This document shows positions 2,189-54,141 of a stretch of 64,000 nucleotides of DNA, piece by piece. The stretch is from Takakia lepidozioides (Eukaryota; Plantae; Bryophyta), in assembly GCA_030704615.1 (NCBI GenBank), contig CM060732.1, positions 37,262,001-37,326,000 on the forward strand. The letters are read 5' to 3'. Every line of letters begins with the position of its first letter. Positions within the stretch are counted from its first letter, which is position 1. Below the pieces are notes generated by a model. It was not told where the DNA came from, made no database searches, and saw only the letters and a list, made by a program, of their open reading frames with translations. Both the position numbers and the translations under genes were made by a program.

Positions 2189-2409
2189 AGATGTTTGTTT
2201 GTTTTTGCAATGCTAACAAGCCTGTGAGCTCCGCAAAACACTAAATAGATTGAAGGAACAATCCGGGCAGTCCATGCAACCCCCATCTCCAACGATAGTC
2301 TGTTCCCATAAATTTGCATCCCACGCACACATTGCAAACAGGACAACAGGGACACACAACCATCCCATTTCCAAATTGGCCCCGAATAAAAGCAAAAGAA
2401 AACTTCATA

Positions 2410-5400
2410 TTAAGTGTCACAGTCATCAGAATCAGTATCGACCTCATGTGCTATGTCATCCACAAAGATTCCGGCCCCAACACCACGTCTTCTACCACGA
2501 CCGTCGATTGTTGGACTGCGAGTGCCATGAACGGACATGCTTGTTGTGAGTGCCTCCGCATAGACAGGTAGCACGTAAGACTGAGGAGGACTTGAAAGAA
2601 GTCCAAAAAGGTGTGATAGCCCTGGAGAGTCAGTGGAAGCACGCGGACTCCTGCACAAGTCGACAAAACCCCATTTTGAACACAATGATGCAATGCACAA
2701 GTCCAACGAAGAGGATGTCTCCCATGTGCACTTCGCCTTAAGAACTGTGATTCTGGGTATTGAAACAACAATGCAAGCATCCACAGGTTGAACTTACTCA
2801 CAGACAAAGTCGGAGTCGAGCCTTGTCGGAAGTCTCCCCTATATCAATATCAGCGGGTAGGGGCTTCGGAAGGACTTGAGAAGTGTGTCCACCCAAACCC
2901 ATCAGGAGGTTCTTGTAAATCTCAACATCTCCTTCAATCCCAAAGAGATGTCGCGCACTGGCCTTGCAAGCATGGTACGAGGCACCTGCAGTGGAATACA
3001 ATGAAAGAAACAGACATTGAAGACACATTTGGAACGATCGGAAGAGCTGAAAGTGCAAGCTCAAACAAACCTCATGAAATATGAATGTTGAAGAGACGAA
3101 CTTGTGCCCATTGACAAATCCAGAACTCTAGCGTCTGTGTAGGTGCAGCACTCCACAATCGTCTGAATGAAAGTCGGGCTCCTCTCCTTGGCCCCTCTCC
3201 AAGGAACCCCATTCCCCCTTCGCAAGCACACGTTGCTGTCCATGTAGTTGTGGTGCATGTCATCCGTGGGAGGATCTGTCGTCTCGTCTATGAACTTGCC
3301 CCCATGAGTGATGGCGAACTCTCTAATGATGGCTGGAGTCGTAGGTGGATGCACTCGGACGAGACAAACAACTTCAAACAAACGAGTCTGCGAACATGAC
3401 ATACACAAGGAACTAAGAAGCTTGAAAACCAGGCCCCTACATATTCATTTGAGCGACTTCTGCAACTCCATCCGAAGAGGAATAAGAAGGCAGATTTACG
3501 ATCTCTCCGGGACGATCCCCCTTCATCAGGTACATGCTGTTAACACAATTTCATGTCTTCACGACCCTCATACCGGAGGCTTTCAAATAGCTGGCAAGTG
3601 CACGGCGACAGCGAAGGTCGATGGACTGGATGAACACCAAAACACCTGCATCGGATAGAAAGAAATTGCAAAAGGAGAAAATCCACCGCCAGTAACGCTC
3701 ATCAAAAGCATTCCAACCTGGACAAGCACCCGATGGAGGGACATCCGGGACTGACAACCCATCAGGGATGTCCAAGATGATGAGTTCGGCTGCATATGGC
3801 TTCTCCTTCCCGTTGACCCAGGATTTGGTCATTTTAGCCTGCAAACAAGCATGCAATGGAATGCTCAAGAGGATTGAAACGATCCATGCCCACAACAGAC
3901 AAGAAGCGAAAGACAACACGCACCGTGCCGAGGAACTCCACAATCCTCTCCCACACTAGTGATGGTTCGCCCTTGTTATCAGATTTCTTGGACTCCATCA
4001 TGGCAAGGAACCCGATGTTGGCCGTCTCCAACCTGGTAGGGCGAATGACCCTCGTGGGATGCTCCACTGCATGGTACGGGTCCTTGGGATCAACCACCCC
4101 CTTGTTCTTTCTCCCGGATTCCCTACCATGCGGTGGAGTTTGCTGGACATCCACCAGAGGGCCAGTATCTACAATACTTCCATGCCCACCTACCTGCCCT
4201 TGTGCCCCCTTCCCCCTACCCCTTCCTTTCCCTTTGCCTTTCTACCTTTACCCGGTGTATCCTGAGCGGGAGGCTCCTTCTCTGCAAGAGTCCTCAAATT
4301 TCTATTATAAATGTCGAGGTCGGCTGCTGCGGCGCTGGCTGCTATACGCTCATTCTCTCTCCTCAAAGACACCTCCTGAGCTGGGGTCTGCAGAGCAATC
4401 CAAATACCAACCACAAGCAGAAAGATGGTCTGGGCCCCAGTCATGCAAGATCCCCGTAGTAAACATGGTCTGGTTGCCAGCAGGGACAAGCCAAAGGTCC
4501 ACAAAATCAGGATGTTTGTCCAAGCAGTTCTCTGCCATGAGAACATACTTTATGTACCTGCAGGAATAGAGACAGCCTCATTATGCAATGCAAATATTGT
4601 CTCCCAGCTTTTCCACCCCATCACAAAGACCCCTTAAAAGAGTATGCGGAACAGTACACTCCACCACAAACTCATATGAGCCAGCCAAAAACAGGTTGGA
4701 TGGAGGAGAGTGTGTCTATGCAAAACAAAAGAAGCACAATCCATTTCGCACCTGTAGGCATCGTTTCCAGGCTTCCTCTCCTTTCTCTTGCTGGTCAAGC
4801 TCATTTGTTCGACTGATGCCAGCATCCTTGCTGAACTCTCTGAAGAAACAAGATTGCCACACTGTGGCTCTCCATTTCCTCATGTATGCTTGGAAGGAGA
4901 CCTTCGGTTCTGTCATGGTGATCCCATAGTTAGCCAGCTGCGTATGTAGAACTGACCGGGCCCTTTCCTCTAACTACAGACCAATACAAAAGCAAGAATG
5001 AACCCAAAAACAATCACAACCAATGTAACATGGAAAGAGAATGACAGAAAAAGCGAAAAGAAAGTGACACATCAAAGGACATCATACCTGGCTCCAGTAA
5101 GTGGCCTTGTGAAGCCATGTGTCCAGCACATTGTCACTGACAGGAATGACACGTTGGGTCTTCTTCTCTTTCTCCGGCCTGGGGAACATGTGGGTATCCC
5201 TAACAGTGGGATCGGAGTTCCATATCTGTAGCCACTTCACCTTCTGTTCTGAAGACCCAAGGGCAGTAGACAACCTGTGTAACTTCTCCTGGGCCATCTC
5301 CAGCTTGCCTGGCTTGTTGTAATGGTTTTTCACCTCTTGAAGGAACTATGCTCCGAAGGTTGGGTCTGCAATTCTCAGTTGTTTCACAAAAGCACTCATA

Positions 5401-8400
5401 ATAGTCCTTCTTGTGGCGGTCATCTCTTTCTGGATGTGACTCTCAACACCCTTTGCTGTCTTTCTCTCCTCAGGGGTAGAGCTGTAGTATTACAGTTTGT
5501 CACGCTCTCCTGCATCTACAATGTCTTGCTGCAAGGGAATGCACAAGAGTTGCATCAACCTAAGGGCAAGGGAAACAAACAGAAACAAACATATGGAAGC
5601 AGGAATATCGAAAGGCCAGATGATGGAAGATGTATCTCACCGCGTACATATACTCCATGAAAGCCTCACGGGTCAACGAGTACCACGTTTCTGATGTCTT
5701 GGAGCTTTCACACTTCTTGTACGTCTCTGCTGAAAGGATGGTCTTGAAGTTGGTCAAGGGCATCTGCCCGATCCTTTGTATCATGTACAGTGTGTGAAGC
5801 AGACTTGTTTTGACATGCGATGTCTCCGTCTCTCTGCAGAATGATGTGTGAAAGTCAAAATGAAATTCAAGGACCATCAACAGGGAACTGGAACCAAAGA
5901 ACCACGGAACCACAAGTGGAACATGTAGAATGAGAAACCAACCTGTTCATATCATTCATTGCCATCAGAAGACCCATCATGTCCCGTCACAATCCAACAC
6001 CATCGATCGAACAGAATAATGTCACTCTTCCTCCTATGAGTGCAGCCTCCCAATGACAGCCATCCATGCAAGCAACCGGTGGTTGCCATCCCAAACGTGA
6101 AACATCTTCCTGAGAATGCCTGGGTGGAAGGTTTCCTAGAGAGAAGAAGTTCGAAGGATTTGTTCACCTGTCTCCAAATGGGATCCCAGGAGTCCACGAT
6201 TGACTCATCCACAAGGAGCTCATTGCCTCTGGAATCCCTTGTAGAAACGTAAAAGACTACGGATCCATCCAAATACCCATGAACAAACTCGGCCTCCAGC
6301 TTCAGGATGTCCTTGATGAGGGGTGGACGAACGACGGGCATGGAAACCAACCTACACAGGGGAATCTTCAACCTCCCACCCGGGGCAAGCATACTTTGCA
6401 CCACAAGCTGAGAGTTTACCTTCTGACCACCCAGCATCTCAGCGGCTTTGTTTTCATAGAACTCATCGTCCACATCAACAATGATCTCCTTCCCCTGCCC
6501 CGAAGAGATCTCATCCGCCACACTTTGTATCTTCTCCTGCAGGGTTGTTCATTCAAATTGATATAAGAGAGAGGCATGAAACGATGGTGTTTTGAGCATG
6601 GCAGACAGGCCCTGTGTGGCCCAATTTCTCATCAGAAAACAAGCATTGTGGGGGCCGAAAACACTGTGCGTTGCCGCACAATGTTTCAGCTTCCAAATAG
6701 TGGTGTTTTGAACATGATATTTGGCCCTATGTGGCACATTTCCACAAAAAAAAACAAGCAGAGAGGGGGCGAAAAAGGGGGCAAAAACAGTGTGCGTTGC
6801 CGCACACTCTTCGTGCTTCCAACTGTGTGAGTTTTGAGCATGCATACTAGCCCTGTTTGGCCCAATTTCACATAGAAAAACAAGCATAGAGGGGGCTCAA
6901 AACAGTGTGCGTTGCCGCACACTATCTGAGCTTCCAATAAGGGTTGGATTCAACCTACCAGAGTGGCCCTAGGTGCCCGATTTTCACACCAAAAAACAAG
7001 CAGATAAGGGGGATCAAACAGTGTGCGTTGCCGCACACTATTTGAGCTTGCAATAAGGTGTGATTTTAACAAGGCACAGTGGCCATGAGTGGCCGATTTT
7101 GAAATAAAAGAAAAGGCAGTGAAGGGGGCTCAAACAGTGTGCGTTGGCGCACACTGTTTGAGCTTCCATTTCGGCGTGGATTCAACCTGCCAGATTGGCC
7201 CTAGGTGCACAATATTCATGTCCAAAAACAAGCAAATCAGGGGGCTCAAACAGTGGGGGCTCAAACATTGTGCGTTGACGCACACTATTTGAGCTGCCAG
7301 GTAAGTGTGCATTGAACCTCAAAGACATGCCCTATGTGGCCGATTTTCACATGAAAAAACAATGACAAGGTGGGCTCAAACAGTGTGCGTTGACGCATAC
7401 TGTTTGAGCTGCCAGGTAAGTGTGCATTGAAGCTGAAAGAGATGCCCTATGTGGCCGATTTTCACTTGAAAAAAACAATGACAAGGTGGGCTCAAACAGT
7501 GTGCGTTGACGCATACTGTTTGAGCTGCTAGGTAAGTGTGCATTGAACCTCAAAGACATGCCCTATGTGGCCGATTTTCACATGAAAAAAACAATGACAA
7601 GGTGGGCTCAAACAGTGTGCGTTGACGCACACTGTTTGAGCTGCCAGGTAAGTGTGCATTGAACCTCAAAGAGATGCCCTATGTGGCCGATTTTCAAATG
7701 AAAAAAACAACGACAAGGTGGGCTCAAACAGTGTGCGTTGACGCACACTGCTGGAGCTGCCAGGAAATTATTGATTGAACCTCATAGAGATACCCTGTCT
7801 GGACGATTTTATTGTGAAAAAAACAATGAGAATGGGGGCTCGAACAATGTGCGTTGGCGCACACTGTTGGAGCTTCGAAATAGGGGTGGATTGAACCGGA
7901 CAGAGAGGCCCATGTGTGCACCATTTCGACACCAAAAAACAAGGCATAAGGGGGGCTCAAATAGTGTGCGTTGATCCACACTGTTTGAGCTTCCAATTCG
8001 GGGTGGATTGAACCTGCCATAGTGGCCCTATGTGGCCGTTGGCACATCAAAAAACAAGCAAAATGGGGGGCTCAAACAATGTGCGTTGCCGCACACTGTT
8101 TGAGCTTCCAATTCGGGGTGGATTCAACCTGCCAGAGATGCCGTGTGTAGGCTATTTTCATATCAAAATACAAGCACAACTGGGGTTCACATCACCAATG
8201 AAGCACAAAGGTGGGTCTCAAACATTTTACCTTTTTTTTTTGCTGCTCCAGAAGACTCCCCAATCGCCAGATACCCTTTGCGCTTTGGACTGCTCTGTAC
8301 GCCGAGCATGTTGTGGAGCATCTCCCCCATCCCCTTTTCCACTATCTGGTTCTTCGTGAGTCCAGCATCAACATCATCTTCGGCGTCCGTCTCTCCCTCG

Positions 8401-8603
8401 GATGTAGTCTCCTCCTCACCTGTTCTTGGAAGTATGGCGGGCTGCTGTTCTTCTCCAGAATCCTGCTCTTCCATCGCCAGACTTTCCTCTTTGCCCTCTT
8501 CTTCCTTCTACTCTACTCTTTCCATCTCATTCTATCTCTGGCTCTATTCCTGTCCCTAGTGCTCGTGAAGTATAACGACTTCCTTCTCTTCCTCCTCCGG
8601 TGG
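2410..8603 (-). pseudogene. Element A multi-exon ParB-like + beta-class DNA amino-methyltransferase-fold gene (5' part continues at 23568-~23630)
   Basis: Acidic N-terminus (8231-8603), ParB-like exon (5952-6536; IPLCRLVSMPVVRP, and WDGNHR after a frameshift), middle exons, motif-IV-like LIILDIPDG (~3760-3786), KERSPTFIQTIVECCTYTDARVLDLSMGT (motif X/I, ~3102-3190) and ASYHACKASARHLFGIEGD (from 2985). Contains stops and frameshifts. Confidence 0.8.
6590..8170. repeat. Tandem array of ~13 x ~116-bp units, each with a 36-bp palindrome, inside an intron (6537-8230) of the element A ParB-MTase gene
   Basis: GCTCAAACAGTGTGCGT-TG-ACGCACACTGTTTGAGC has perfect arms at 7606-7641. Variants recur near 6658, 6785, 6900, 7015, 7131, 7262, 7377, 7494, 7725, 7842, 7958 and 8073. 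Confidence 0.95.
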
Positions 8604-8611
8604 AAACAAGG

Positions 8612-8720
8612 GAGGTTTACTATTTCATGAGCAGAAACCATGAGCCATGAGCCATGAGCCGCATGAGCCGCATGAGCGGTGAGCCGAAGTCTAAGATACG
8701 CGGATTTCATGAGCGGACTC
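8612..8720 (+). repeat. Left TIR and subterminal (C)CATGAGC repeats of element B
   Basis: TATTTCATGAGC..CCATGAGCCATGAGCCATGAGCCGCATGAGCCGCATGAGC; the inverted counterpart is at 23478-23559. Confidence 0.9.
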
Positions 8721-9462
8721 CTCCAAATTTGGAAATGCGGCAGATTAAACAAGTATTAAAATAATAGTTTTTTATTTGACCTTGCCGTTTTTGGACGTTC
8801 CAGATCATGTAATGCGGCGAAGATATGTCGTCAGTAACAAGTCCGCTCATGGTTTTTTAGATCCGCTCATGGAAATAAGTGACCGTGCAACGGGAAATCC
8901 AGTATACCACTGCAAAAGGACGTCGCATACTGGCCTGTATAGAGTATTCCGCGGTTTTACATGCCTTAACATTGGAATGAAGCTGACCCTTTTGCCGCGA
9001 TTGAACCAATGGAGTCTGCACCAATACAGTCTGCAGTACTTTCAACAATTCTGTCTTCTTCGGGTATTCGGCGGGAAAGGTTTGCAACTGAACTGGGAAA
9101 TAAGGTGCCGCATTAGGGTTCGCACGTGCGAAATTTCGGAGCGGTTTGGTGTTGGCGAAGGCCGCCTCTACCAGTACCTACGACGATACTTGGAAATGCG
9201 GCGCCGCATTTCCTTGTCGGAGGTCGAATGAGGAAAGCAAGTTTTCGGAAAGCAGAAAAACATGAACCCTCCAACATACAAAAATACATGCACGTGGAAA
9301 CAAGTGAACGATATAGTATATCTTAGTTCGAGCAAAACAGGTTACTGGTAGGCAAGACATATGTCGGACCTTTCTGTGGCCAGAGTCTGAGGTACTGGCA
9401 GCAGTACAGTTCTACTATCCGAAAAGGATGGGCGTACCATTGTATGGGACCGCAAGCCAAGC

Positions 9463-12400
9463 TCACTGGTCCCCTGGATCCATATTCAGAAGAGTGTGAA
9501 CCTCCTGGGGGGCTCAACCCTGGTGCATGTATGAAGTGATGAGTTGTGGAATTACAACGGAGTCTCTTTAGGTACACGTAGTACAAATGCTTGCAAGGGC
9601 AGTATGATGCCCCCTTGTTCGCCATGATCTGGAAGTCGGTGCAATTGCAGGTGGGTAATTCTGAAATGGTGATGGTGTACACCTCATTGCGAACAGCTGA
9701 GCCTGCCGTGGCCATCTGATACACACGCCCGAATCCTGGTGGGGCACTTCTGTCGAGCTCTGGATTGTACAGTTCATCCGAAGTGCATTCCCATCCTTGT
9801 CTCGTTCACTTTTGAGGGAGGTCGCCGCCTCTTCGGTTTCCCCCAACGGTGTGTAGGATGCTTAGAGCTGTCGTGTCCCATTGTTCTTGCTCTCACAGGG
9901 GTCGGTGGTGGAGGCTGTGGAAGCGGAAATGGTTGTCTGGGGACGTCAGTGCGCGCTGCACCATCCGAAATCCTGCGGCGGTAAGGGCGTCGGCCTCAAC
10001 CTGACTCAGATCGCAGCCTGGTTCCACCGGCCACACCGGGGGAGCCTCTGGCATTGTTTGTATGCCGTACTGGGCTTTCCATACACGCAAGTCATAATGT
10101 CGTGCCTGCAGAACCAGAACTGGGTGGTTGTCGCCTCCGCAAACTTTGCATGGACAAATCTTCCTGTAAAAGTAGGAGCAGGGACAGCCCCATCTGGATT
10201 CCTCCTTATCATCTCTAAACAACGTTGCCGTGTATCCACACGAATTGCGGAACACCTTCCTCGAAACGACGGCTTTGTGCGAGCAATTCTCCACTGTGAT
10301 GCAGACACAGTCGTCCACAATGGCTTGGCCATACTGCATAACAGCGGGCGGAATCTGGGGCAAGGGAGCGGTGGGAATTTTGCACGAAATCCCCGGTTGA
10401 AGGCGACGGCGATCTGGAATTTCTTGGGCTTCCACTGCTGGAAGACACATTGTGCGGCAACATGACGGGACCTCGAGGTGCTGTCCGAATGTTCCTGTCG
10501 GATCTCCAGGAATCCTCTTCGCACCCGGGTTCCTCTTCAATCCTCCGCCTGACAGGGCGAGTCCGGACGTCCCCTCTAGGTGTTCACCTCTGCGGTGCAG
10601 AGGCGTCCCTTTGATCTTCTCTCGCAATGCTGTCGCCCATTTCACTGGATTCTTGGACCTCGAAGCTGTTCGTACCAACAATTCCTCCCTGTCCGGCCCA
10701 AAGCCCCATTGTTTGCCGCTCAGGAACTTGTAGTACGTGGCTTGCTGCATGATTGCTCTGTCGATGTCCTCCGTTGTGGCCGTCACTACGTCCACCAGAT
10801 GTGCGGCAGAAGACGCTCGCCAGGAGGAGTGGACCGATTCTGCCATATTCGTGTTCGGCATGTCCGTGTCGGAATCCAAGCACCGCTCCTAGAAGGACAC
10901 AAACAATGGTGAGGGACCAATCGAAATGTCCGTAACAGAAAGACAAATGAACGAAAAATGACAGCAGCCTACCTCCCGCATGTACTGTCCGAACTGTCGA
11001 TACCGAAAATGCCACCACCCCAACCAGCTGTGCAATGCTCCCAGATTGGTTGTCTCCACTGCACCTGACGTGTTCCACCAAGCCTCGATGATAGCAAACT
11101 TAACCTCCGCGTCATCAAATGTGGGTGCATCCTTCCACGCCGTACAAAGGACACGGTGTTCAGCCTGGAATGAGCTAGCAACAAATTTGGTAGTGTAGTG
11201 GGATAGACTCTGCATCCAATGGAATCCACAGGATCTCTCTTTCCCTCCATTGGAACATTGGGGTCCTCACCGTACACACGCCGCACCGCTGCCCAGTTGG
11301 CCTGAGCGTTGTCTGCCATGAATCCCCTGAAATTGGGCTCTGGCAATCCCGCCCTTGCCATCTGCTCGTTTATGCCCTCCCACAGATGCATCTCGGACTG
11401 TGTGTCCTCCCCTTTCATCTCGCAGATTGCAATCGTCATGAGCCTCTTGGAGTGATAGTCATAAACATGCGCACCCATAGTCACCCACTGATGGTTTGTA
11501 ATTCGCTTGATGTGATCAAACATCACCCAAGCATTCGACAAGTTTCCAGTTGTCATGCGAGTGACCAAGTCGACTCCACTCCCAGGCCCACACGTCGACA
11601 TTTTGAAAATGTAACAACGATCGGATTCGCTGCCTTGCCCTGGAAAAACCTGCTACCTTGGATGTAGTCATATCCAGTCATTCGTTTCACCTCCAGGATT
11701 GAGTACATGTCCGACCCCCTGCCGAACTCCTGCTTGCAAGATACGATGTGATTCCGCACATTCGGACTACAAACGTGCGAGACGGACTCCAAGAGGTCAC
11801 GCATCTCGTCTTCGTCAAGGGCTCTCGGTCGGAACCATCTTCAGACATGATTTTGCCAAGAGCAATCTTGTGGGCTGCCTTCAGCTGAATCTGCTTTGGT
11901 CTGGCTCCGGGGCTCAATTTCACCTCCTCTTTTATGATGTCGTGTGCTTCCTGCACAGCCTCACGCATGTTGCCTCTCGCCAAGGGGTGGCAGTGGACCC
12001 CAACGTGTATGCAAGCTCTAGTCAAGTCCGGGAGCAAATGGATTACGTAATATTGCTTGGCTCTGCACATGGACATGCACGTCGGTGGTTCTTTGCAATG
12101 TGCACACTTGAAAGAACCCGCAGGAGCTTGGCTGGAGACAATGAATGGATGATGCGTTGTGCCAGTCCAATCCGTCTCGTTTCTCCGCCCTCCTTTGGAG
12201 AGAAAGTGGAAGCAGGGGATTGAGGCACCTCAGCTTCCCCGCACAGAGGACATATCGTACACGAACACCATCAGCAATTTTCGTGCTACTGGTCTTCGTC
12301 ACACACCAGGGTGTCCGTCATGCTTTCGATCCATGTCTGTTAACATCCGGAGGCTTTGTTTGACGAAGAAACAGGTGGAAACTCGAAGATGACATTGCCA

Positions 12401-13062
12401 TCGACTTCGGGAGGCAGAAACGTTACCTTTCTGACTGGGAATTTGGCATAGTCGAGAGCAGCCAGCTCGGAGCGAGAACCATCGAGGTGATGTTGTCGTA
12501 GGAGCTGCACAATGGACCGGGTTGGAGTTATGCTCGAGGGCACATGCGTAGCACCTACAGAGACGTCCATGCCGGATTTGAACGACCGTGTGGAGGACAT
12601 GGGTACCTCAATGCAATCATCTTCCTCGTCGGAAATGTCGAATACGTCCACACGAGAAGCTATGGAGGGTCTTGACGGTCCAGGTCGGGAATGATTATCG
12701 TTGCATACCTCTCTGTTGGCAGTGGCCGCCTGTCGGTTTCCGGACTCCTTTGTGGATGGTGTGGGCAGCGACTGATTCGGAAAGGGAATGGGCATTCCCA
12801 CAGCTCGGTACAGGATGGTGTCTGACGGGGGAACGTGCCATTCGATTCCGCAACCTCCGTCGTTACCTAGCACGACAATGGTCTCGTCAACCTGTCCAGG
12901 AACATCCTTCCTTTCTTCTTCCAAATAAACTGTGCCCGGTTTGAGCTTGAATTTGGAACAAAGGTAAGTTTCAGTCACTCTGCAAAGTCCTCCCTCGTTT
13001 GGGATCCAGGCTCTCCCAAGTTGCGGAGGACAGCAAACTATAGCGTAGGAATTCGGAGCCAT
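9463..13062 (-). pseudogene. Element B MULE-type DDE transposase with GCM-like N-terminal domain and C-terminal SWIM finger (frameshifted as assembled)
   Basis: WVMFDHIKR (D1), FMADNAQAN (D2), TNMAESVHSSW (E); SWIM CNCTDF..CPCKHLYYV; N-terminal CAGKLRCLN..CRAKQY..CIHVGVHCHP. One intron at ~10873-10970. Confidence 0.85.
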
Positions 13063-13469
13063 CGAACACCGCACGAGTTGGCAAGTGCGAGGTTCAGTAT
13101 AGCGACAGACCAAGGCTCACAGGCACCATGCGGAGTCCATCGACGATTGGAAGTCGCACATTGAAGTGGAAAGTATTGTTTCAAGCTACATGCATGAAGG
13201 TGGAGGTTTGATTCCATAGCCAGTAAGTATGACAATGATGGCCGATTCGGCGACGAAATAACATCTCTGACAGTTTCTCCTGAGGGTGGATCCAGCAGTA
13301 TTCTCGGTGCAGACAGGAACGTTCGCACTGACAAGTGCCAGGACTTAGTTAAAACGGTCAGACCAAGTTGTGCTCATCAAGACTGGCCGCAATTGTGTTG
13401 TTTCGGAACAATGCAACCCATTGAGGTTCCAGATTTCCCGTCCCGAGTGATTCTTTCGATTGCTGGTGG

Positions 13470-14900
13470 ACGGAAATACGGCGCCGCATTTCCGTATTGC
13501 ATCTTGGTCATGCACCAGAGCGACGGAAATGCGGCACCGAGTTTCCGTCCGGGGAACCTTTATACTCTCCAGAACGGAAATGCGGTAACGCATTTCCATC
13601 CAGCAAGCACCATGGAACGTGGAACGGAAAGTACCGCATTTCCGTTCTGATTGAGAATTATGAACAACGGGAACAGAAATGCGGCACCGCATTTCCGTCC
13701 GAGTCGCACTTTCCGACATTCCTTTTGAGTCTCCAGAACGGAAATGCACGCATTTTCCAACAAGCACGGTATGTGAAGGTGGAACGGAAATGCGGTACCG
13801 CATTTCCGTTCTGATTGAGAATTATGAACAACGGGAACAGAAATGCGGCACCGCATTTCCGTCCGAGTCGCACTTTTCGACATTCCAGAACGGAAATGCG
13901 GCGCCGCATTTCCATTTTGTATCTGATTGGAGCCGGTTCCGACCGCTTGCGCAATTCCGACCAGACATTCATCCAGAACGGAAATGCGGTACCGCATTTC
14001 CGTTCTGACTGAAAATCGTGAACCATCGGAACTGAAATGCGGCAGCGCATTTCCATCCGAGTCGCACCTCCCAACATTCCAGAACGAAATGCGGCACCGC
14101 ATTTCCGTTCTGATGAAAAATGAAACATCGGAACTGAAATGCGGTACCGCATTTCCGTCGGAGTCGCACCTTCCGACATTCCAAAACGGAAATGCGGCGC
14201 CGCATTTCCGTTTTGTATGTGAGGCATGGAGCTGTGGAACGAAAATGCGGCACCGCATTTCCGCCAGCGTCAGACCTTAATACTCTACAGAACGGAAATG
14301 CGGTACCGCATTTCCGTTCTGACTGAAAATCGTGCGCAACGGGAACAGAAATGCGGCACCGCATTTCCGTCCGAGTCGCACCTTCCGACATTCTCGAACG
14401 GAAATGCGGCGCCGCATTTCCGTTTTGTATGCCTGGAACGGAAATGCCGCATTTCCATCCATGTGAGACCTTCAAACTTTCCAGACGGAAATGCGGCACC
14501 GCATTTCTGTCCAGGTGAGACCTCTATACTTTCCGAACGGAAATGTGGCACGGCATTTTTTCATCAACAGGGAACGGAAAACCGCATTTCCGTTCACATT
14601 GAAAATCATGAACCACGGGAACTGAAATTTGTGCCTTCCGTCCGAATCGCACCTTTCGACATTCCAGAACGGAAATGCGGCGCCGCATTTCCCTTTGTAT
14701 CTCATACATGGAGCTGTGGGACGGAAATGCGGCACCGTATTTCCGTTCAACAACTAAGGTATGTGAAGGTGGAACGGAAATGCGGTGCCGCATTTTCTTC
14801 CAACAAGTACGGATGTGTAGCTTCGTGATGGTACTTAACGGAAATGCGGCGCCGCATTCGCATTTTCACTCCAACTCATCAGACGCTGGGACGGAAATGC
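13470..14900. repeat. Array of ~25-30 copies (~52-bp spacing) of the palindrome GGAAATGCGG-NN-CCGCATTTCC between the two divergent genes of element B
   Basis: A perfect 22-mer at 13892-13913 and a perfect 34-bp palindrome at 14182-14215. The linkers fall into a few recurring types. Confidence 0.95.
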
Positions 14901-15204
14901 CTTGAAATGTGAACACGTGGAGCAACGGAATTGGCACATGTCGGCACTCTATCTGACTGAAGGGCATGAGGCGGCGCGGCCTGACCGTTGGATAATGATG
15001 TTTGTTTTTCGGACGGCAGGCGTACCTGAACGATTCGAATTTCGTAATGACGCAAACTCCACGAGGAGACACTTTTCGTCCAACCCTTTCGAACCCAAGT
15101 GGTGCATCACCGCCGTTTCATCTACTTTTGTCGTGTCTCCTCAGTCACCCCTCTCGCGCCCTTTCCATCTGCACTCTTTGCCCCTTTTCCCTCTCTCTGT
15201 TCTT

Positions 15205-18200
15205 ATGCTCGAACCTGAGAGGGGGGGAGTTCGTGCACCAGACAGGAGACCTCGTCGCAAGCTCCGAAAATTATACTTCGGACGTAGGCCAATGCCGAAG
15301 GGGAGGAAGCAGATGCGTCTACAGGAGGAGATTGCCATCTCCGAGCAGCAGGCCACTCAGGCAACCCAGCCACCAGTGAGAGCTCCATGCGATCGGGGCT
15401 GCGCGCAGCTGATCGAGCACCGAACCCCCCATTTTGCTTCTGTAATTCTTACTGAATGCTAGGAGACTTGAATGCAGAACATGTTTGCATGCCTAACAGG
15501 AAAGGTGGACGTGCTGGAGGGATCGCAGGAATCCGAAGAGCCGCAGGAAGAGTCCGAGGAGCTAGCTGCAGCACGTACACCCACCCGATCCCCGAGCGCG
15601 GGTATTCCTGCCGGGCCTAGCCCTGTGCGATTCAAAGACGCGTCTTCGAAGGGCAAGTTCAAAGCCCAGAGATCGACTCGCGTTTCGGTCATGGAGAATC
15701 GCCAGCAGGGGTCGGGCCCTTCTCCAGCAAAGTCGAAGAAGAAGCAGCCCGTCCCTCTACTGGCTTCTGAACCGGCTCAGGCCGATTCACCCCCCAACGC
15801 GAATGAAGCAGGAAGACAGATTCAATTGCAGCAGACACCTTCACCTGCAAGGATGAGGAAGCAGAAGGCAATCAGGGCGACGGCCGAACAATCTCCCGCA
15901 AAACCGCTTCCACGAGCTGAAGCTCAGTTCCTGGAGGATTTCCCGCCTGCAGATGTTGGGGCCGACTCTGCTGCAGCGAAAGGCAATGGGATCGACCGTT
16001 GATCTCGATTTGGTACCGGAGGAGGGTGCTGCCGCTGAACGTTCGGCAGACCTCACCACCGATGAGCAAGCAGGCCCGGAGGAGGCCTCTGCAATGGCAG
16101 AATTGCCCGCACACAGGCCCCAGAGTGCAGCTCCAGTTGAGGATGCTCCAGCTGCTCAGCCACTACCGGCACCTACAGACATGTCTCCGGAGGATTTCAA
16201 AAGTGCAGCGGATAAAATGTTGGAGGAGACACACAGTAGCATTGGCAGAGTTCTGGGCAGCAGGGTATTCCAGCGGACTCTTCGAATCCCACTCTGTCGC
16301 ATGGTCTCCCTTCCCATCGTCAGGCAGGCCCTTCCCGGAGATGTGGATAAGCTCAAGTTCGCATTTCGAGAAGGGTACCGTCTGGGATCGGCAGCGTTTT
16401 ACGTTTCCATTGAGAATGAGGACGGCGAAACTCGTGGACCCACTGCCGATGAATTGTCAACGTGGGATACCCACTGGCACACTCGCAACCACGAATTCGA
16501 GGCGACGCAATCCGACTTCGGCCATATGTCGGGTAAAATGTTCTTTGTGTGGGACGGGAATCACCGACTTCTCGCCTGGTGGGAGTACATCAAGCAGAAC
16601 CATGCCAAGCACATTGGCTGGCATTACATGGTGGAGTGTGTCATCCTCAAGGTGAAGGCGGCAGACTCCTCCCTCAAGAATGCCATGGCGGACCTCAACT
16701 CGTAAGATACTCATACCCTCCCTAGCACGTTCGAAATGCGGTGCCGCATTTCGGTTTCCATTCTGGTTTGTTTCCGTGCTTCCGTGTACTGAACTGGAGA
16801 GTGTGCCTTGCAGGGTCACTGAGAATGCGTACGTGCATACCCACATGGCACATATGCTGTACAGGGTGAGGAAAACTGGTCTCACTGATCCGCAGATGTT
16901 TGCGGAAATGCTGGAGCCCGAGCTCATTCAGAAAGCCGTTGCAAAAACAGACCGGACATGGTATCGTCTCACTATGGATGGAATGGTGGAGGTGATATAC
17001 GAAGTAAGTCGTCCTCCAATTTCCCTCTGCTCATCCTTCCCCAATTTCCAGTAATCTTTCCACATGAATCGAATGTAACGCTTCTGCATGTTTTTGTTGG
17101 CAGTCAAACATCAAGCTGGATTTGGCCCATGCCAAACGCTTCTTCATGGAAAGTGAGGGGCAGGTCAAAACGTTGCAGTCATTGACTGAGCACTTGAAGG
17201 AAGCCGGTGTCAAGTCCAGAACCAAATACAAGTCAAAGCTTGTGAAGCTGGTGGCAATTGCAGATCGGCACTTGGAAAGGACTTCATCCCCGAGATTGCA
17301 AAACACTATTCTCGGGCCATGCAGCCGACCATGCAATTGGAGAAACTGCATCACCTCTCAACGGCATGTGTGGAGGCGAAAGAGAAGGTGAGGTTTCAAT
17401 GCACTGAAGTTCCTTCCTAGCAATAGCCACTCTCTTCCACTGACATTGGATCGGAAATGGCAGACACGGTGGCTGTCGATCTGGAATGCATCCGAGAGCA
17501 TAAGGACAATGTGGTCTTTTCCACTGGAAGTTTCCGACCCTGCAGTGGATGTGTGGCTCAACCGCATGACTTGGTGGTTCCAGGTAATTCAAGGTACTTC
17601 CCCAGATTTGCTTTTCTGACATGAATTCCCTGAACTGCTACGTGACAATGCATTTGGGAATCGCAGGTAATGTCGAATGCGAAGGAGCAAGTCGTAATGC
17701 ACACAAATTCGTTCGGCTTGTACGTCAAATGGGATGGAACACAGACATTGGAAGACTACGTGACACGTTTCAGATGTGCGTACAAGGACAACCTTTTCGC
17801 CAGAGCTACAGACAGCAAGAAGGAGCGTGGAGTTTACACATCAGGAGGGAGCGGGGAAAGCTGCAATGCGAATTGTTTACAGGTGAAGCACAGCTGCCCT
17901 TGTATGCGAAGCCTGGTTACGAGGTTTGTCTCGGAAATGCGGCACCGCATTCGCATTTTATGTTTTCGGTGGCACTCTGCCAGTAGGTTGGTCTCAATTT
18001 TGCTCACGCATGCTGACTGCCTTGCAGGTATATGAAATACGTGCTCCTTCAGACAGGGGCCCTGGCTCAAGAGCCCCCGTTCTTCATGGCTTGGACCGTG
18101 GCGGGCCCAAGCTGTGTCTACACACCCGAGATGCAGAAACAATGGCATCCCGCGCATCTCGTTGGATGCCCGTGGTACCTGGATGTCTGGCGGTTGTTGA

Positions 18201-20331
18201 CGAGTCTGAGAAAAGATCTGCACGCCTTGGCAGAAGAGAAGAGAAAGGAAAGACGTGTCCCTGCTGGCCAAAGTCGGCAAAGGATCTGCTGCTCTGGAAG
18301 AATCAGAAAGGCAGCTGAGATGGCACAAAAGAGGTGGATGCAGCTGTGCAGGCCCAACAGAAGGGGTCGAAGAAGAGGACTCGCCAGCAAGGAGCAGCTG
18401 TTGTGACCCCGCCAAAACGAAGAAGCAGAAAAACAGCTGTTCAGGAAGAGGGTGACGAAGAGGACTCCGATGGAGATTTGCAACCAGCCACCCCAAACGC
18501 AGGCTGCCTCCCTGTCCTACAGTTGTCACGAGAGGCACGAGAACTGGCTCGGCAAAGAAAGCATCTTCAACCCCCAGGGGCGCACCCTTTGAGCCGGTGG
18601 AAATGAGGAGGCGAAGTGGCTCCCGAAACAGTAGTCCAGTGTGTAAATGAGAGTTTCTTGGCGCTTTGTGATGGACGGGCAGCCAAGTTGGCATACATGA
18701 AGACCATGGAGGGTCTGAAGGGCAGAGCACTGAAGAAGGCGACTGCCGAAGAGCCTTCCGACACCCCAGGATTTCAGGAATATGGTCTCGTTCTTTGTGA
18801 GGGTGTGTGCAGACAAGGATTGTAGGAGGGGCGGAATGCCACCCGAGGTGGTCTTGCGATATGATCATCTTGGATATTCCGGACGGAGAGCCTGTGGAAG
18901 GACTGCAAGCTTTGCCCATCTTGGAACAGGAAGGTACTCGGAGGACTTTTGGAAGAAAGGATTCGGGCTTGCCCGCATGGTGTTGGACGACAGAAGGCTG
19001 TGTGGTTGTCTTGGCGAGCAGAGGAAAAAACACTCAGACAGGAATTGCGAAGTGGACCCGCAAGAGCGCCGTCCGATGCATCAACACACGGGCTTCGGTC
19101 GGAAGGAAGAAGGTGATTACGACAATGGCACTCGTCCATTGTTTGCTTGGGGGTTTTCAAATGCGGGCCGCATTCGGTTCTAATCGTTCCCCCCTGTGTA
19201 TGCAGACGAAGCAGTTCGATGCATACTGCTTTGTGAAGGAGAACTCCACCTTTGCTTCCGGAAGGAGGGAGGAAAGGTGACCCGAATGCACCCCCGATTA
19301 CGACGTTCTGTCAACAACGTTCCCAAGGAACTTCCCCTCATAGCCTCACTCAACGGAACCCCTGCGGTACTCACGGACTCGGAGCCCTGCCTTCATTCAG
19401 ACAATTATGGGGACATGCAACAGACGTGGAGGGCCAGTGCTGGACCTCATCTGTGGGACGGGTATGAAGAATCTTGATCTATGCTGTTCTGAAATTTCTC
19501 GTTATGATGTAGTTCGCACATCTGAAGCGCCATTTGTAATGTGTGGATGGCATTGTAACAGGTGCCTCAAATGTGGGCTGGGCGGTTTCCGACCGGCACC
19601 TCTTGCCTACGGGAGGATTCATCCGTGTGGGGATCCCATCGGGAAGGCTGCAACGGAATGTTAAGGCTCCCAACAGAGCGGAAGTCTCCTCGGATTCGTC
19701 GGAGTCCGAGGAAGACACAGTGAACATGATGCGGAGGAGAACCCGGAATACGAGAGTGAGTGCAAACATTGTAAGTTTGCAAAAGCTTCTGGGTCATTTT
19801 TATCAAACGAATTTCCGGACTGTGGTTCTCATTAGTCTCGTTGTGATGATTGTCATGTGCAGGATTACAGGGTCCGGGTCGAAATATGTAGGGCCTACAC
19901 TTCCTGTAGGAAGAATGTCCCGTTCTTTGCGAAGGCCGACTTTCATGACGAGCCCGGTGAGGGACTACTCCCTTCCTAGTTATGCAGCTAAACTCGCAAA
20001 TACAGCGATTAGAAGAAGTGAGAATCCAGTAAAGTAGAGCAGATTTTGGAGGGGGGCTAGGAGGACAGAAGGATAAGGAAAGAGTTGGCAGCAGCTCAGA
20101 CAGGTAGACGGGTACGAAAGTACATATGTGATTCAGCGGATGAGAGCGACGCAGACAGGGCGGAAGACGACCCAAACGGAGGTGAGATGGACAGTTCCGC
20201 AAGGGGAAGATGGGATTTTTGAAAGCCAAGCCAACGAGCAGTCCGCTGGAGATGAGAAAGGCAATGAGGGGGTGGAGGCGGAGCAGGATAGTCTAGAACA
20301 GGATGAGGATTCGGATGATTTTCAAGATTAA
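15205..20331 (+). pseudogene. Element B multi-exon ParB-like + beta-class DNA amino-methyltransferase-fold gene (frameshifted as assembled; start approximate)
   Basis: Low-complexity N-terminus; IPLCRMVSLPIVRQ..MFFVWDGNHRLLAW (16280-16580); middle exons homologous to A (RWLSIWN/KWLQIWN; WHPAHLVGCPWYLD/WGPDHLSACGWYLD); DMIILDIPDG (~18858-18887); RSPAFIQTIMGTCNRRGGPVLDLICGTG (19380-19461); intron 19462-19561; GASNVGWAVSDRHL; acidic tail. Confidence 0.8.
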
Positions 20332-20464
20332 TAGAATTTTAATGAAGTCTCTGTAAATGTAAATTCTCTTCCAGAGTATATAAAGGAAATTCTCCCCGAC
20401 ATTCGTGACCCCTCTCCAGTGTGCATTCCAGCCACACAATCGCCCAAACCACGACGCTCCCAAA

Positions 20465-21190
20465 ATCAGAAATGGGGCACCGCATTTCCAAAATTTTGGC
20501 AACTCTAAAAACCTCTTTTGGAAATGCGGCACCGCATTTCCAAAACAGGGGAGGGACTAAATTTTCCATTTCAATGTTGGCATAGTAAAAAGTAATCGGC
20601 CGATTGGAAATTCGGTGCCGCATTTCCAAAATTTCCTTTGTCCACACGCCAGTTTAGGCCTCTCCCGCTCATTTCATGGATGCCACCACGCTTACAGAGG
20701 TCGAACAAGGAGGTCGAGATGGCGGAATTGGAAATGCGGTGCCGCATTTCCATATTGGGGATGGTCGTTGTTCGAACTGCAGGCCCATCAGCAAAAATTG
20801 GCACCGCATTCCATTGTCAAAAAAAAGTCGATGACGGACATGGAAATGCGGCGCCGCATTTCCAGAACGGACATCGCAATTTGTCCATTTGCAGACCCTC
20901 TACGGAAATGCGGCAACGCATTCCATCGCGCTGGTCGGAAAGTCACACTTTCCGAAGTGTTTGGACGGAAATGCGGCACCACATTCCCTTGTCAAAAAGA
21001 AGTTTCCATTGCCAAGCTGGAAATGCGTCGCCGCATTTGCAATGCCAACCTCGTTGTCTGTCCAATTTATAGACCCGTGTTGGTATTTCGTGTACCTGGA
21101 CGGAAATGATGCACCGCATTCCATTGTCCGACACTGAAATGCGGTTCATACATTTCCATGTCGGCATTGGAATGCGGCACCGCATTTCCT
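20465..21190. repeat. Second cluster (~12 degenerate copies) of the element B palindrome, downstream of the ParB-MTase gene
   Basis: GGAAATGCGGCACCGCATTTCC and variants near 20520, 20606, 20729, 20842, 20904, 20967, 21019, 21102 and 21170. Confidence 0.92.
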
Positions 21191-21417
21191 TGTCCGACAT
21201 GGCGTTACTCTGGTATATTCTTGACACATGACTCTCATACCGGTTACTCTGGTATATTCATCCGGACACACAAATTGTAGAAATGAGACGTCAAATTGTA
21301 AACAGTGGGCCAATTCCGACAGTTATTCAACAGAATGAAACACAATCACACAGAAGTGAGGTACGATGGGTTTATTGATCGGACACGATGTCTCACATTT
21401 ACCAACTGCAGACAAAA

Positions 21418-22064
21418 CTAAGCCCTTCCTCCTTCTACATGGGCTTCACCAAGTCGACGGAACTTCGATACCCTCAAAACAAGCTCATTACTGCTGCGGC
21501 ACCTCGAGGTAAACTGCAATTTGGTCATTCTGCTGCCCTTGCTGGAGCCGACGACAATGTCATGTCCATCAATGATACCACCATCATACATTGACAAGGT
21601 CACTGTGGGCCTCATGTGCCCGTGCGATTCATCTTCGCAACTCAGCCAAATGTCTCCATACACTGGAAGAGCGGAGTGATCTGCACGTGTATAGTTTTCC
21701 CCGGTGCTGTCCTCCCTGGTCCACTGGCAGAGCGCCAAAGCGAGGCCGTGCGTGATCTGTCCGGCATCCTATTCCAGCTTGGTATATCGAGGTCAACAAT
21801 TTTCAGGACCCACGGACCGCATTGACCCTCGCCCTCACCTCGCTCAAAGCGGTAATAGCCCTCCAGATACTCCATTGCGCGCAAAGACTCTTGCTTGATT
21901 CCAGCAGCGTCTGTGAAAACAGAGAGCCAGACAATGATGTCTCCTGATTCTGGTTTGAACATAGCATAATCGTGGCCATGATAAGGGCAGTCGGCTGGAG
22001 TATGCTGGAAAAAGAGTAGCGGAGTACGCTCAATGACAGCAGCTCCCGGATGGAGGAGGAGCAC
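21418..22064 (-). pseudogene. Unknown cargo protein, paralog 1 (one frameshift near 21740)
   Basis: DCPYHGHDYAMFKPESGDIIVW..EYLEGYYRFERG..PWVLKIVDLDIPSW..PVYGDI..YDGGIIDGHDIVV aligns with ORF 22387-23049. Confidence 0.75.
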
Positions 22065-22386
22065 CGCGGTGGCTGGAAAAGTTCAAGCTAACGCTGCAAT
22101 TCCTCACAAACACTCCAGGGCACATTTAAATTTCCCCCCTACAGGATCCTGGACCGATGAAGATTGGCTGCTGCATGAATGTAGTCGTTTCAGTTTCCTA
22201 CCCTGCCATGCAAACTATGGGCAGTCACTGCCAGGTGGGCCGATAGCCACTGGACACGACGAAGTCCATCCCCTCTTCGATGTAAATGCGGCGCCGAATT
22301 TCCATCCGGGGGGATGGACTTCGGTGGCAGATCTCAAACTATAACTTGTTGATGAGAAAGATGTATGGGTTCATCCACCTTCGTCG

Positions 22387-23049
22387 GTGGGTACGTGGGA
22401 CCCAGATGCTCCATTATTGGAGGCCGGACTGCTCTTCCGCTTCGCATCATTTCCAAAATCTAAGGGCTTCGTAGCTGTCCGCAAGGTCATTGTCATCGGC
22501 ATCCAAGTCGTCCTCAGGTCCTCCTTTGCAAGGATGCCGTGCTTCCGGAACCGGGACGACTGCCCATTTGGAGGCATCGATTATGCAATGTATTCGGCCA
22601 CATCGGGAGACATTGTTATCTGGTACACAGATTACAGAGAAGATACTGGTTCGATTGTGGGAACATTGGTGGCTTTTGAGTATATCCTAGGCCACTACGC
22701 CTTTGAGCGGGGTGACGATCTTGGTCTGAGGAGTCCGTGGCTCCTGTGCATCCTCGATTCCGATTTTCCCAGCTACGACGGTCACCCATGCAGAAGAAGG
22801 CGCACTGCTATGCTGTTGCGGTGGAACTGCTGCCACTGGACGTGGGTGGACTCCATCGGAGAGACCTATTCTCCTGAAGGAGTGCGCTCCTCTTCTCCAT
22901 TGTATGGGGACATTCGCATTGGTGTGGATGACGAAAACGTGAAGATTTCCATATTCGATGGTGGTATGATTGAAGGGCAGGACATTGTGGTGAACATCAC
23001 TAGGGGCGGTACAACGGCTGCAATCGACTTTACCTGGAGAAGCCCATGA
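22387..23049 (+). CDS. Unknown cargo protein, paralog 2 (true start probably ~22535)
   Basis: Open frame DCPFGGIDYAMYSATSGDIVIW..EYILGHYAFERG..PWLLCILDSDFPSY..PLYGDI..FDGGMIEGQDIVV, homologous to the divergent neighbour. Confidence 0.75.
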   Translation: MGTWDPDAPLLEAGLLFRFASFPKSKGFVAVRKVIVIGIQVVLRSSFARMPCFRNRDDCPFGGIDYAMYSATSGDIVIWYTDYREDTGSIVGTLVAFEYILGHYAFERGDDLGLRSPWLLCILDSDFPSYDGHPCRRRRTAMLLRWNCCHWTWVDSIGETYSPEGVRSSSPLYGDIRIGVDDENVKISIFDGGMIEGQDIVVNITRGGTTAAIDFTWRSP

Positions 23050-23477
23050 CTCATGAGCTAGTTCTGAGAGCAGTCGGAGTCCCATTGACAACGTGACTTG
23101 TATTCAGTAGGCACAGGGCTAAAGATTTGATTGCACAATCAGCACAGTAGACGTGCTTCAAATGCAATTCATGTGGATCAATAAAAACCTCATTGTGCCC
23201 TCTTTTTATTCTATTCTGTGTCCATCGTTCCGAGAATGCGTCATTGCTCATTTCGTTTGGGATTGGGAGTGTGGGTGGATTTTGCAAGTGGCTGGTAGGC
23301 TGAAATGGGCCCCCATTGTACAGAGCAGTACCACCCTTCCATTCGCGAAACATTGCCTTTCAATATATAATTCTAAATAACATTGCCGAACCTCCTTCAT
23401 CGGGAGGTCCTTCTCCCCCTATGACTGTGGCACCCTAAACCCTATTCCCGCGGACACTCATTTCCGGAAAATAGTGC

Positions 23478-23559
23478 TGCTCATGTTTTTTTCCACACTT
23501 ACGACTCTGCTCATGGCTCATGCCGCTCATGGCTCATGGCTCATGAAATAGCAGCCCCC
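23478..23559 (-). repeat. Right TIR and subterminal GCTCATG repeats of element B
   Basis: GCTCATGGCTCATGCCGCTCATGGCTCATGGCTCATGAAATAGCAGCCCCC. Confidence 0.9.
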
Positions 23560-26500: not shown

Positions 26501-27194
26501 AATTTCACTTTGCATCGTGCCTGTTCATTTGGGGTTGTTGGATTGTCACTTACAGAACCTCTTCCATTTCCTTTCGTTCCTCACATTTCCATGCGATGCC
26601 TCCTGCAAGACATGTCATTGGAGGACTTGGCCGACATGCCATCCTGTAATTTGGCGGAGACTATTCACAACGCCTGGATGCAGCAGTCTACCAAAGCAGG
26701 ACGTGACTTGTATGTGGCCACTGCTGATGACATGGTGCAGGCACTTACACAACAAACCAGGTACCGCAATTTTCTTATAGGACGGGTTGGAGGCAAGGGC
26801 CCTGATACAACTTTGTTGATGCTAAGGGCTGCGAGTAGGTCCGGAGACCCATCGAAGATGGCCAGAGCTTTGAACAGGTGCATTGAAGGCTCCCCTTTGC
26901 AATCCAGACTCCCCCAAGGAAAAGGAAGGCGAGGAAAGATTTGGATCATGCAAAAGGAAATTGAACACTCCTCCAGGGTCGGATGGAGATTCCCATCGGC
27001 CGGACAGGGTCAATTTCTCTGTACCAAAGGTGTCTCTAGTGCAGACTAAGTCGTGTGCCCGCCCCTTCCTAGGTGGGTCCTCCTCTAGTGGAGCAGGTGC
27101 AGATCATGCAAGCACGGCAGCAGGAATCCCATTGGAGGAGGTGGTGGCCATGGTGCATGAATCTGATTGCATTGATAGTGAGTGGCATATAGAA

Positions 27195-33334: not shown

Positions 33335-33389
33335 GATGAGGCCAATCCCAAGGACGATCGCGTACTGAACTCTAAGCTCTGATACCAAG

Positions 33390-54109: not shown

Positions 54110-54141
<32 letters not shown>

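Follow-up and report, generated by a model that had tools for sequence, protein, structure and literature searches.

ParB-like proteins are encoded by transposons of brown and red algae. In the brown alga Ectocarpus, the element Sola1-1_Ec32 carries a gene opposite its transposase for a 1,104-amino-acid (aa) protein with ParB and N4/N6-methyltransferase (MTase) domains, for which binding and modification of the element that encodes it have been proposed (PMC12477816). Red algal Plavaka (EnSpm) elements have tandem inverted repeats beside the ParB-like gene PAG3, and self-binding is proposed for them as well (bioRxiv 10.1101/2025.02.11.637652). The locus described here lies in a land plant, Takakia lepidozioides (GCA_030704615.1, contig CM060732.1, positions 37,262,001 to 37,326,000 of the forward strand; these 64,000 nucleotides are called the window below). 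This plant DNA contains spliced host genes as well as transposons nested in one another. One of these, element A, is a member of a high-copy Mutator-like element (MULE-like) transposon family, and a tandem array of palindromes fills the predicted first intron of its ParB-like gene. We favor the view that these palindromes are parS-like loading sites for the element's own ParB-like protein and serve its self-protection from silencing, a function that we consider probable.

Other described systems share parts of this design. The motifs recognized by VANC proteins are 8-9 nt long, asymmetric (YAGTATTAY, AGTTGTCC/AC) and wholly different between families (PMC5735166). VirB is a bacterial ParB-type anti-silencer that counteracts H-NS (PMC10676424). 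A survey of the ParB fold presents sulfiredoxin as its main eukaryotic representative and reports phage-encoded ParB-N6N4-MTase fusions; the terms 'plant' and 'transpos' are absent from its main text (PMC12704722). Finally, a Dam family of chlorophytes and chytrids forms a fusion with a helix-turn-helix (HTH) of the ParB type (PMC4738411).

The Intronic Array of Element A

The multi-exon ParB-like gene of element A runs from ~8600 to 2410 (minus strand), and the transposase is oriented divergently from it (Table 1). Sized with Tandem Repeats Finder (TRF), the array spans 6775-8176 with a period of 116, 12.0 copies and 73% matches, and a 126-bp pair precedes it at 6651-6896. Its cores start at 6665, 6791, 6906, 7022, 7138, 7269, 7384, 7500, 7616, 7732, 7848, 7965 and 8080, at a spacing of 115-131 bp, and the degenerate last unit reaches the predicted splice donor at 8230. 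No further core of this type is present on the plus strand of the window. A preliminary description of the window had counted ~13 units of ~116 bp, each with a 17-2-17 palindrome. The number and size of the units hold, but the full palindrome is perfect in unit 9 only, and the remaining units match at 10-16 of 17 positions.

The predicted intron is 1,694 bp long and the array occupies 1,646 bp of it. One edge of the array lies 48 bp from the acceptor of the ParB exon and the other coincides with the predicted donor, in agreement with the earlier placement of the array directly before that exon. No terminal inverted repeat (TIR) or target-site duplication (TSD) of the array's own was seen at its edges. 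The central units had been described as the most homogeneous, and the unit tree, in which units 7-10 form one clade, bears this out and fits local tandem amplification; unit pairs outside this block are 58-83% alike.

Other copies of element A were represented by contigs from four of ten listed runs, aligned over 2400-7173 and 7768-8700. The family is large, with 11,570 contigs aligned in run X1. Joints in contigs of other copies include 6592>7128 (depth 876, vs ~60 for long single contigs), 6542>6776 and 6330>7013. In these copies the palindromes adjoin both exons, the number of units varies, and contigs bridge exon 1 and the array. Because other copies join the palindrome to both exons, the array is built into family A and is not a stray satellite, contrary to the possibility raised earlier that it is an independent satellite or miniature inverted-repeat element missing from other A copies. 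The best palindrome bins in X1 reach a summed depth of 1.0-1.3 million, ~8-10 times that of the ParB exon, where summed contig depth is not a copy number. This ratio fits roughly ten sites per A copy, a reading complicated by the existence of a second unit type. At each junction, 53-87 X1 contigs match the 36-bp palindrome alone and exit with different flanks and spacers. The second unit type, which is abundant, combines the A palindrome with other spacers and seemingly longer arms. It may belong to another subfamily or to a non-autonomous element, and its loose ends lie at 7128/7164 and 8070/8106.

The alignments also bear on the state of the window copy. At 6108-6111 other A copies have one C more than the window copy, and at 8232 they lack a T. 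Since they differ at these positions, the frameshift and the off-phase donor are private defects of the window copy, and the missing T restores the splice phase of the predicted intron elsewhere in the family. The MULE-like label is based on the 8-9 bp TSD of the related element B, a CxxH-like 'CLFHW' and a sub-threshold SWIM-like end, all of which we take to be features of the MULE family. A Pfam search of 23 open reading frames (ORFs) in the window gave neither ParB nor MULE matches.

Constraint on the Core

The conserved part of the A palindrome is a 16-bp 6-4-6 core, TGTGCG-N4-CGCACA. Constraint was assessed in 10 of the 13 units, with units 7, 8 and 10 omitted as recent duplicates. Only 7 of 160 core cells (4%) depart from the majority base. 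The corresponding counts are 25 of 200 for the outer arms and 174 of 797 (22%) outside the palindrome. The difference between the core and the rest is significant (Fisher p=1.5e-8; in a shuffling test, the best 16-column window has p=0.005), and a single central position holds five of the seven core differences. The TTG at the core center is invariant, non-palindromic and unpaired. Of the core CpGs, 25 of 26 are intact; the CpG observed/expected ratio elsewhere in the array is 0.28. The A array is a genuine, constrained feature.

Could such an array be a neutral minisatellite or a hairpin-driven repeat, shaped by slippage, arm-to-arm repair or small RNAs and read by no protein? The recent homogenization of units 7-10 would suit this origin, as would the strong DNA hairpin that unit 9 can form (-19.3 kcal/mol) and the frequency of tandem repeats at related loci. 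However, hairpin repair is an unlikely cause of the invariant TTG because it would leave the loop unpreserved, and invariance of a non-palindromic center fits read-out by a protein better than a hairpin. The retention of hypermutable CpGs speaks against neutrality too, as do the single spacer length and the single position relative to the homologous exon that are found at many loci, including those with dispersed, non-tandem sites (see below). A neutral repeat is therefore disfavored, and we regard it as very improbable.

Element B Shares the Core

Element B, inserted in exon 1 of element A, belongs to a paralogous family with the same two genes at ~40% protein identity. Its termini are ~20-bp imperfect TIRs with CATGAG subterminal repeats, and empty-site contigs, in which 8612 continues directly into 23569 onward, represent A copies devoid of the insertion. 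B-type palindromes match at 41 places in the window; 39 of these fall within B, and A has none. They are intergenic, downstream or intronic, with two of the 39 in predicted exons, both weak, and the B arrays flank the ParB-like gene on both sides.

Read on the gene strand, TGCGGCAACGCA, present in five of the 13 A cores, and the B sequence TGCGGCACCGCA are equal at 11 of 12 bases, and B site 20907 is identical to the A 12-mer. Outside the core there is no similarity between A and B units. The preliminary description regarded the two palindromes as different, sharing at most TGCG..CGCA, which understated their relationship. It also placed them in different positions. This is correct insofar as the first intron of B is siteless and its main arrays flank the gene, but single B sites do occur in other introns (Table 1). 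The right part of B (21600-23050) holds ORFs of 234 and 146 aa, for which Pfam gave nothing informative and the fetched loci contained no relative.

The Core in Relatives from Other Plants

Related loci were taken from a metagenome scan (plant-like, best 80 of 249) and de-duplicated to 54 representatives, a set that retains two near-identical pairs; more than 100 bp of upstream sequence was available in 22 GC-rich and 30 AT-rich loci. Within 2 kb upstream, 13 of the 22 GC-rich loci contain palindromic CG-N4-CG sites, 23 in all, vs 0.5 after shuffling. When CG was permitted to become TG or CA, 75 such CpG-decayed sites were found upstream in 25 of the 30 AT-rich loci, vs 11 after shuffling. An initial impression from exact-palindrome counts, that long AT-rich loci lack arrays, was overturned by allowing this decay. 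Among spacers of 0-8, upstream enrichment occurs at spacer 4 only. A downstream excess at spacer 8 (10 sites) was set aside, as it looked like shared homologous, probably coding, positions. Several relatives have tandem units of 117-158 bp with a palindrome directly upstream of the homologous exon.

The position of the sites was profiled in 27 hand-picked AT-rich loci. Density peaks at -1500 to -300 from the PLCR motif of the ParB exon (2.23/kb, 23 of 26 loci), falls to ~0.3/kb, near background, more than 2.5 kb upstream of it, and rises again in a second cluster at +2-3 kb. In loci L026, L031 and L075 this second cluster has a 51-bp period, CAACTTT-CGGYRCCG-AAAGTTG, and lies at ~+2500 to +2800 from PLCR, inside the gene region. 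These three loci indicate that single elements can hold two arrays, like B.

The family consensus of the core center is CGGYRCCG. Because CG-N4-CG recurs upstream of the same exon in plant relatives, the core appears to be old, and it is the flanks and spacers that turn over. Palindromic themselves, the flanks are for the most part particular to a clade and in line with the exon tree: GTCT in a 17-row clade, TGT in L022 and L045, CATT in L007, AATG in B and TGTG in A; loci of the AT-rich clade have AACTTT, TACTTT or TTCTCT. The preliminary description held that binding sites turn over quickly by tandem amplification and proposed comparing motifs between A-like and B-like subfamilies. Tandem amplification, divergent spacers and subfamily-specific flanks are all present, and the flanking 4-8 bp, spacer and position do change; the core is kept in A, B and distant plant relatives. 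A further hint comes from the A-like proteins, where the closest record is 58% identical. A cluster mate of this record reads through two upstream 'CVNA' peptides, CVNA being the translation of the A core in one frame, and one of the two could be encoded by a perfect palindrome with 10-bp arms, as could 3 of 400 background peptides. As a trace in a protein record, this is suggestive only of an upstream core.

Recurrence across species invites two explanations in which the ParB-like protein is not the reader. In the first, the core is a site for a host transcription or chromatin factor, exploited as an intronic enhancer, and the ParB-like protein acts otherwise. A conserved host factor would yield a CGGYRCCG kept across species and subfamilies, and the sites do lie in a first intron or promoter region. 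Palindromic symmetry, however, runs 4-13 bp past the core in a clade-dependent manner, even between A and B in one genome, and the host genes of the window (15.8 kb) are not enriched for sites (3 vs 2.7 in shuffled sequence, and 0 under strict matching). We consider a host factor quite unlikely. In the second, the palindromes are internal transposase sites that act in synapsis or in transcriptional self-activation. Among 27 loci with 5 kb or more of upstream sequence, 7 have a detected transposase, which is divergent in all of them, and the main array of B sits between the two B genes. Sequence-specific activation of cognate copies has also been reported for the AtMu1 transposase of Arabidopsis (bioRxiv 2026.08.24.746577). 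Against this, the repeats at the termini are of another motif, CATGAG in B and GTGAGC in A; the sites are densest next to the ParB exon, with a second cluster in the same gene, and not by the transposase; A is siteless near its transposase and right end; and a 16-bp palindrome suits an HTH dimer. Transposase sites are unlikely, if slightly less so than host-factor sites.

Predicted Fold and Domains of the ParB-like Protein

The ParB exon beside the array has 427 relatives at E<=0.001 (50%-identity representatives), including named full-length homologs in Riccia sorocarpa and Adiantum. An Atlas query with 16184-16702 of the B ParB exon returned DUF3723 and ParB_N clusters at 0.92-0.95. The nearest Atlas clusters are fungal DUF3723 proteins and cnidarian proteins, and the former suggest that DUF3723 is itself a ParB-fold protein. 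Fungal DUF3723 proteins are linked to Starship elements. In the literature searched, no paper names both DUF3723 and ParB.

Five exons were modeled with AF2, the best model reaching pLDDT 77 (the A-like exon) and the other four ~41. The best model matches Noc, ParB and KorB at Foldseek E 0.02-0.1. In VIA it superimposes on ParB 7bm8 with Z 8.6 and a root-mean-square deviation (rmsd) of 2.2 over 93 aligned residues; sulfiredoxin scores Z 5-6, and the top 13 rows are all ParB-type. In the model of a 901-aa homolog, residues 171-543 align onto KorB 51-259 (Z 7.6, rmsd 4.0, 164 aligned), and its helical domain also aligns with the DNA-binding domains of Noc and ParB at rmsd 6-14. The Box II GxxR corresponds to G141-N-H-R144, in which G, N and H are invariant and R nearly so in 18 sequences, and it is present in A and B. 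In the Box III region, D186 and N188 are conserved; by alignment range ends N188 lies near residue 112 of 6sdk, a position that we take to contact CTP. The models predict a ParB-CTPase fold followed by an HTH-like domain for this protein.

A third domain follows. The full-length liverwort homolog P0160 has a C-terminal N6_N4_Mtase match at E=5e-5, below the curated cut-off, homolog P0209 has a precomputed PF01555 match, and matching MTase-like exons are present in A and B. The domain is kept from liverworts to ferns. A candidate for the SAM-binding motif I, expected as FxGxG after motif IV, reads DFAGGWG in the liverwort homologs, and DLSMGT and DLICGT occur at exon ends in A and B. In Pfam searches of the exons and full-length homologs, N6_N4_Mtase was the sole meaningful match and no VANC-type match appeared. 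Other searches were negative: PDB sequence searches gave chance or low-complexity matches only, 7,056 candidates contained no longer homolog, 42 pattern matches in viral contigs included no relative, and the scanned ORFs of A and B contained a transposase and the ParB-like gene only, with no ParA-like gene.

Nested ParB-Gene Elements

A more distant ParB-like exon (1946-2212, minus strand; VIDGQH; profile iE 0.019) defines element C. A perfect 14-2-14 palindrome at 1952-1981, in the next intron, is centered on CTG-TC-CAG and lacks a CG-N4-CG core. Its motif recurs at 35962, 38343, 39751 and 41624, around a different transposase-like region (~38300-41500). Element A appears to be nested inside the gene of element C, with a nested span of ~2200-35400.

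ParB-gene elements thus lie in each other's ParB genes, B in exon 1 of A and A probably in C, which may reflect chance or a targeting bias. In a further reading, the ParB-like protein does bind the palindromes, but for DNA handling instead of anti-silencing: bridging of ends, retention of excised circles or steering of insertions near related elements. B lies in the ParB-like gene of A only 380 bp from the array, the MTase-like motif IV is degenerate, and canonical ParB organizes and partitions DNA (PMC12704722). On the other hand, the elements have no visible ParA-like gene, the MTase-like domain has been kept from liverworts through to ferns, the algal counterparts are fused to DNA-modifying domains, and two nesting events may be chance. 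DNA handling strikes us as rather improbable, about as much so as a host-factor site.

A Proposed Model for Self-Protection

If the palindromes load the element's own ParB-like protein, loading would proceed in several steps. The HTH-like domain of a ParB-like dimer would read the two half-sites of the core, which we regard as quite likely. A nucleotide, probably CTP, would then close the clamp, which would slide across the 10-15 kb element; the chances are somewhat in favor of this step. The MTase-like domain, which lacks the DPPY aromatic, would mark, mask or read cytosines and so counter 5-methylcytosine (5mC) silencing of its own family, a step for which the case is evenly balanced. Tandem amplification would multiply the loading sites, and subfamilies whose flanks have diverged would be prevented from activating one another. 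Only tentatively do we propose the more general model, a ParB-parS system of eukaryotes that resides in the transposons of land plants: a sliding clamp, switched by a nucleotide, would load at family-specific CG-N4-CG palindromes, take an MTase-like domain along the full length of the element and confer subfamily-specific anti-silencing over a kilobase range.

Several observations weigh against self-protection by a loaded clamp. Some concern the sites. The long-branched sister of A, L021, bears GTCT, the flank of a different clade, and L003 has a GTTT flank within the GTCT clade. L001, nearest to A, is siteless in a short upstream part of 427 bp, L056 and L058 have no clear sites, and the palindrome of the more distant element C lacks the core. 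The flanks were compared on a tree of the N-domain (the ParB exon) rather than of the DNA-binding domain, the CG-N4-CG geometry was picked after inspection of A, B and some TRF units, and the GC-rich loci are not independent because most of them fall in one 17-row clade. Co-occurrence leaves room for a role of the transposase, since it accompanies the gene wherever it is found. Others concern the protein. The window copy of A is broken. No exon or homolog model reached Foldseek E<=0.001, four of the five exon models are of low confidence, and full-length ParB alignments of the homolog model mostly have an rmsd of ~12. Active beta-class N4C/N6A DNA methyltransferases have the motif IV consensus (D/N/S)PP(Y/F/W). 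In A, B and the homologs this motif is D-[LIVF]-P-[T/S/D/E/F/I/W], and methyl transfer is doubtful because the DPPY aromatic is missing. Moreover, the ParB fold may bind CTP, ATP or GTP, or lack clamp function (PMC12704722).

Were the model correct, a conserved CpG core with variable flanks would constitute a natural, programmable specificity code, and the CpGs could make loading methylation-sensitive, forming a bistable on/off switch. Elements A and B, together with four or more additional flank classes of the relatives, supply matched protein/site pairs with a common core, so that cross-binding, nucleotide dependence and methylation sensitivity are directly testable. A sliding clamp would also address an open question for VANC, namely by what route a short motif brings about demethylation across several kilobases. 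It would be a rare eukaryotic case in which the ParB-CTPase fold serves as a DNA clamp, and it might be put to use in targeted epigenome editing.

Features of the Window

The coordinates of elements A and B are collected in Table 1. A left end of A matching the right end was not found in the window.

Table 1. Positions of the features of elements A and B in the window.
Feature	Position	Strand	Remarks
Tandem array of A	6585..8230	.	13 complete ~116-bp units with one palindrome each, and a degenerate 14th unit
16-bp cores TGTGCG-TTG[C/A/G]-CGCACA	6665..8095	.	13; candidate parS-like sites
Perfect 17-2-17 palindrome	7606..7641	.	Unit 9
Recently amplified block	7305..7767	.	Units 7-10; 91-99% identical; single clade in unit tree
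Predicted first intron, ParB-like gene of A	6537..8230	-	GT at 8230, AG at 6537, from sequence
Exon 1, ParB-like gene of A	8231..8611	-	Acidic; in-frame stops in window copy; resumes beyond 23567
ParB/Srx-fold exon of A	5955..6536	-	PLCR..VRP..WDGNHR; frameshifted near 6108-6111 in window copy
Downstream exons of A	2410..5946	-	Predicted helical HTH-like domain, then MTase-like domain
MTase-like domain of A	3758-3796; 3103-3204	-	Motif-IV-like ILDIPDG; motif-I-like region
MULE-like transposase of A	24446..34984	+	Split by long terminal repeat (LTR) retrotransposon 27195-34105; SWIM-like C-terminus, E=0.073, below cut-off
Likely right end of A	35300..35400	.	GTGAGC-rich subterminal repeats, unlike intronic palindrome
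Element B	8612..23559	.	Inserted in A exon 1; TSD AAACAAGG at 8604-8611 and 23560-23567
ParB-like/MTase-like gene of B	15289..20331	+	ParB exon 15857-16702
Main array of B	13470..14870	.	AATGCG-GYRC-CGCATT palindromes, between transposase and ParB-like gene
Second palindrome cluster of B	20468-21190		Single intronic sites at 16735 and 17936 (introns read from sequence)

The retrotransposon in the A transposase is a full gypsy-type element whose LTRs are 95% alike, with a 60-bp flanking duplication (27141-27200/34104-34163). Other LTR pieces are an integrase-like fragment at 1-1530 and a related solo LTR at 42938-43668. A 424-bp tandem duplication at 61204-62055, 99.8% identical, is either recent or an assembly artefact. 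Two host genes were labeled by eye: that at 48000-50630 (+) presumably belongs to the phosphoglycerate mutase family, and we take that at ~53300-59300 (-) to be a granule-bound starch synthase.

Comparison with Known Systems

The layout described for algal transposons is found here as well. The ParB-like gene is divergent from the transposase in A, B and all seven loci where a transposase was detected, inverted-repeat arrays are adjacent to it, and its ParB-like domain is fused to a domain of DNA-modifying type, the MTase-like domain. Like the Sola1-1_Ec32 gene, it is an opposite-strand accessory gene for a protein of ~1,100-1,200 aa with ParB-like and N4/N6 MTase domains. The two differ in setting, the one belonging to a brown alga and the Sola1 superfamily and the other to land plants with a MULE-like transposase, and the comparison is one of descriptions. 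Furthermore, motif IV is degenerate in the plant proteins, and a candidate binding motif is given for the plant elements. PAG3 differs in that it is fused to a 2-oxoglutarate (2OG) oxygenase, with the MTase as a separate gene (PAG2). Moreover, the array of A fills an intron, and its core is conserved across subfamilies while the flanks are clade-specific.

VANC and VANDAL elements provide the analogy drawn in the preliminary description. VANDAL elements are of MULE type and the elements described here are MULE-like, and both have an accessory protein and motifs multiplied in tandem in introns and intergenic regions in a subfamily-specific manner; to this extent the analogy stands. Beyond it, the protein considered here is a fusion of predicted ParB-fold, HTH-like and MTase-like domains, and its candidate sites are 16-bp palindromes with an old, conserved core. 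Anti-silencing, demonstrated for VANC, would be a property of element A by analogy only.

Among bacterial systems, VirB-virS, KorB, Noc and ParB-parS share with the plant protein a ParB-CTPase fold with GxxR, a following HTH-like domain, predicted in the plant case, and palindromic sites. Unlike these clamps, the plant gene is eukaryotic, intron-split and transposon-borne, with an insertion in the N-domain, a larger helical domain and no ParA. In the literature searched, supplements not covered, ParB accessory genes with inverted-repeat arrays are already reported in algal transposons, and neither a land-plant ParB transposon gene nor a description of the CG-N4-CG core was found.

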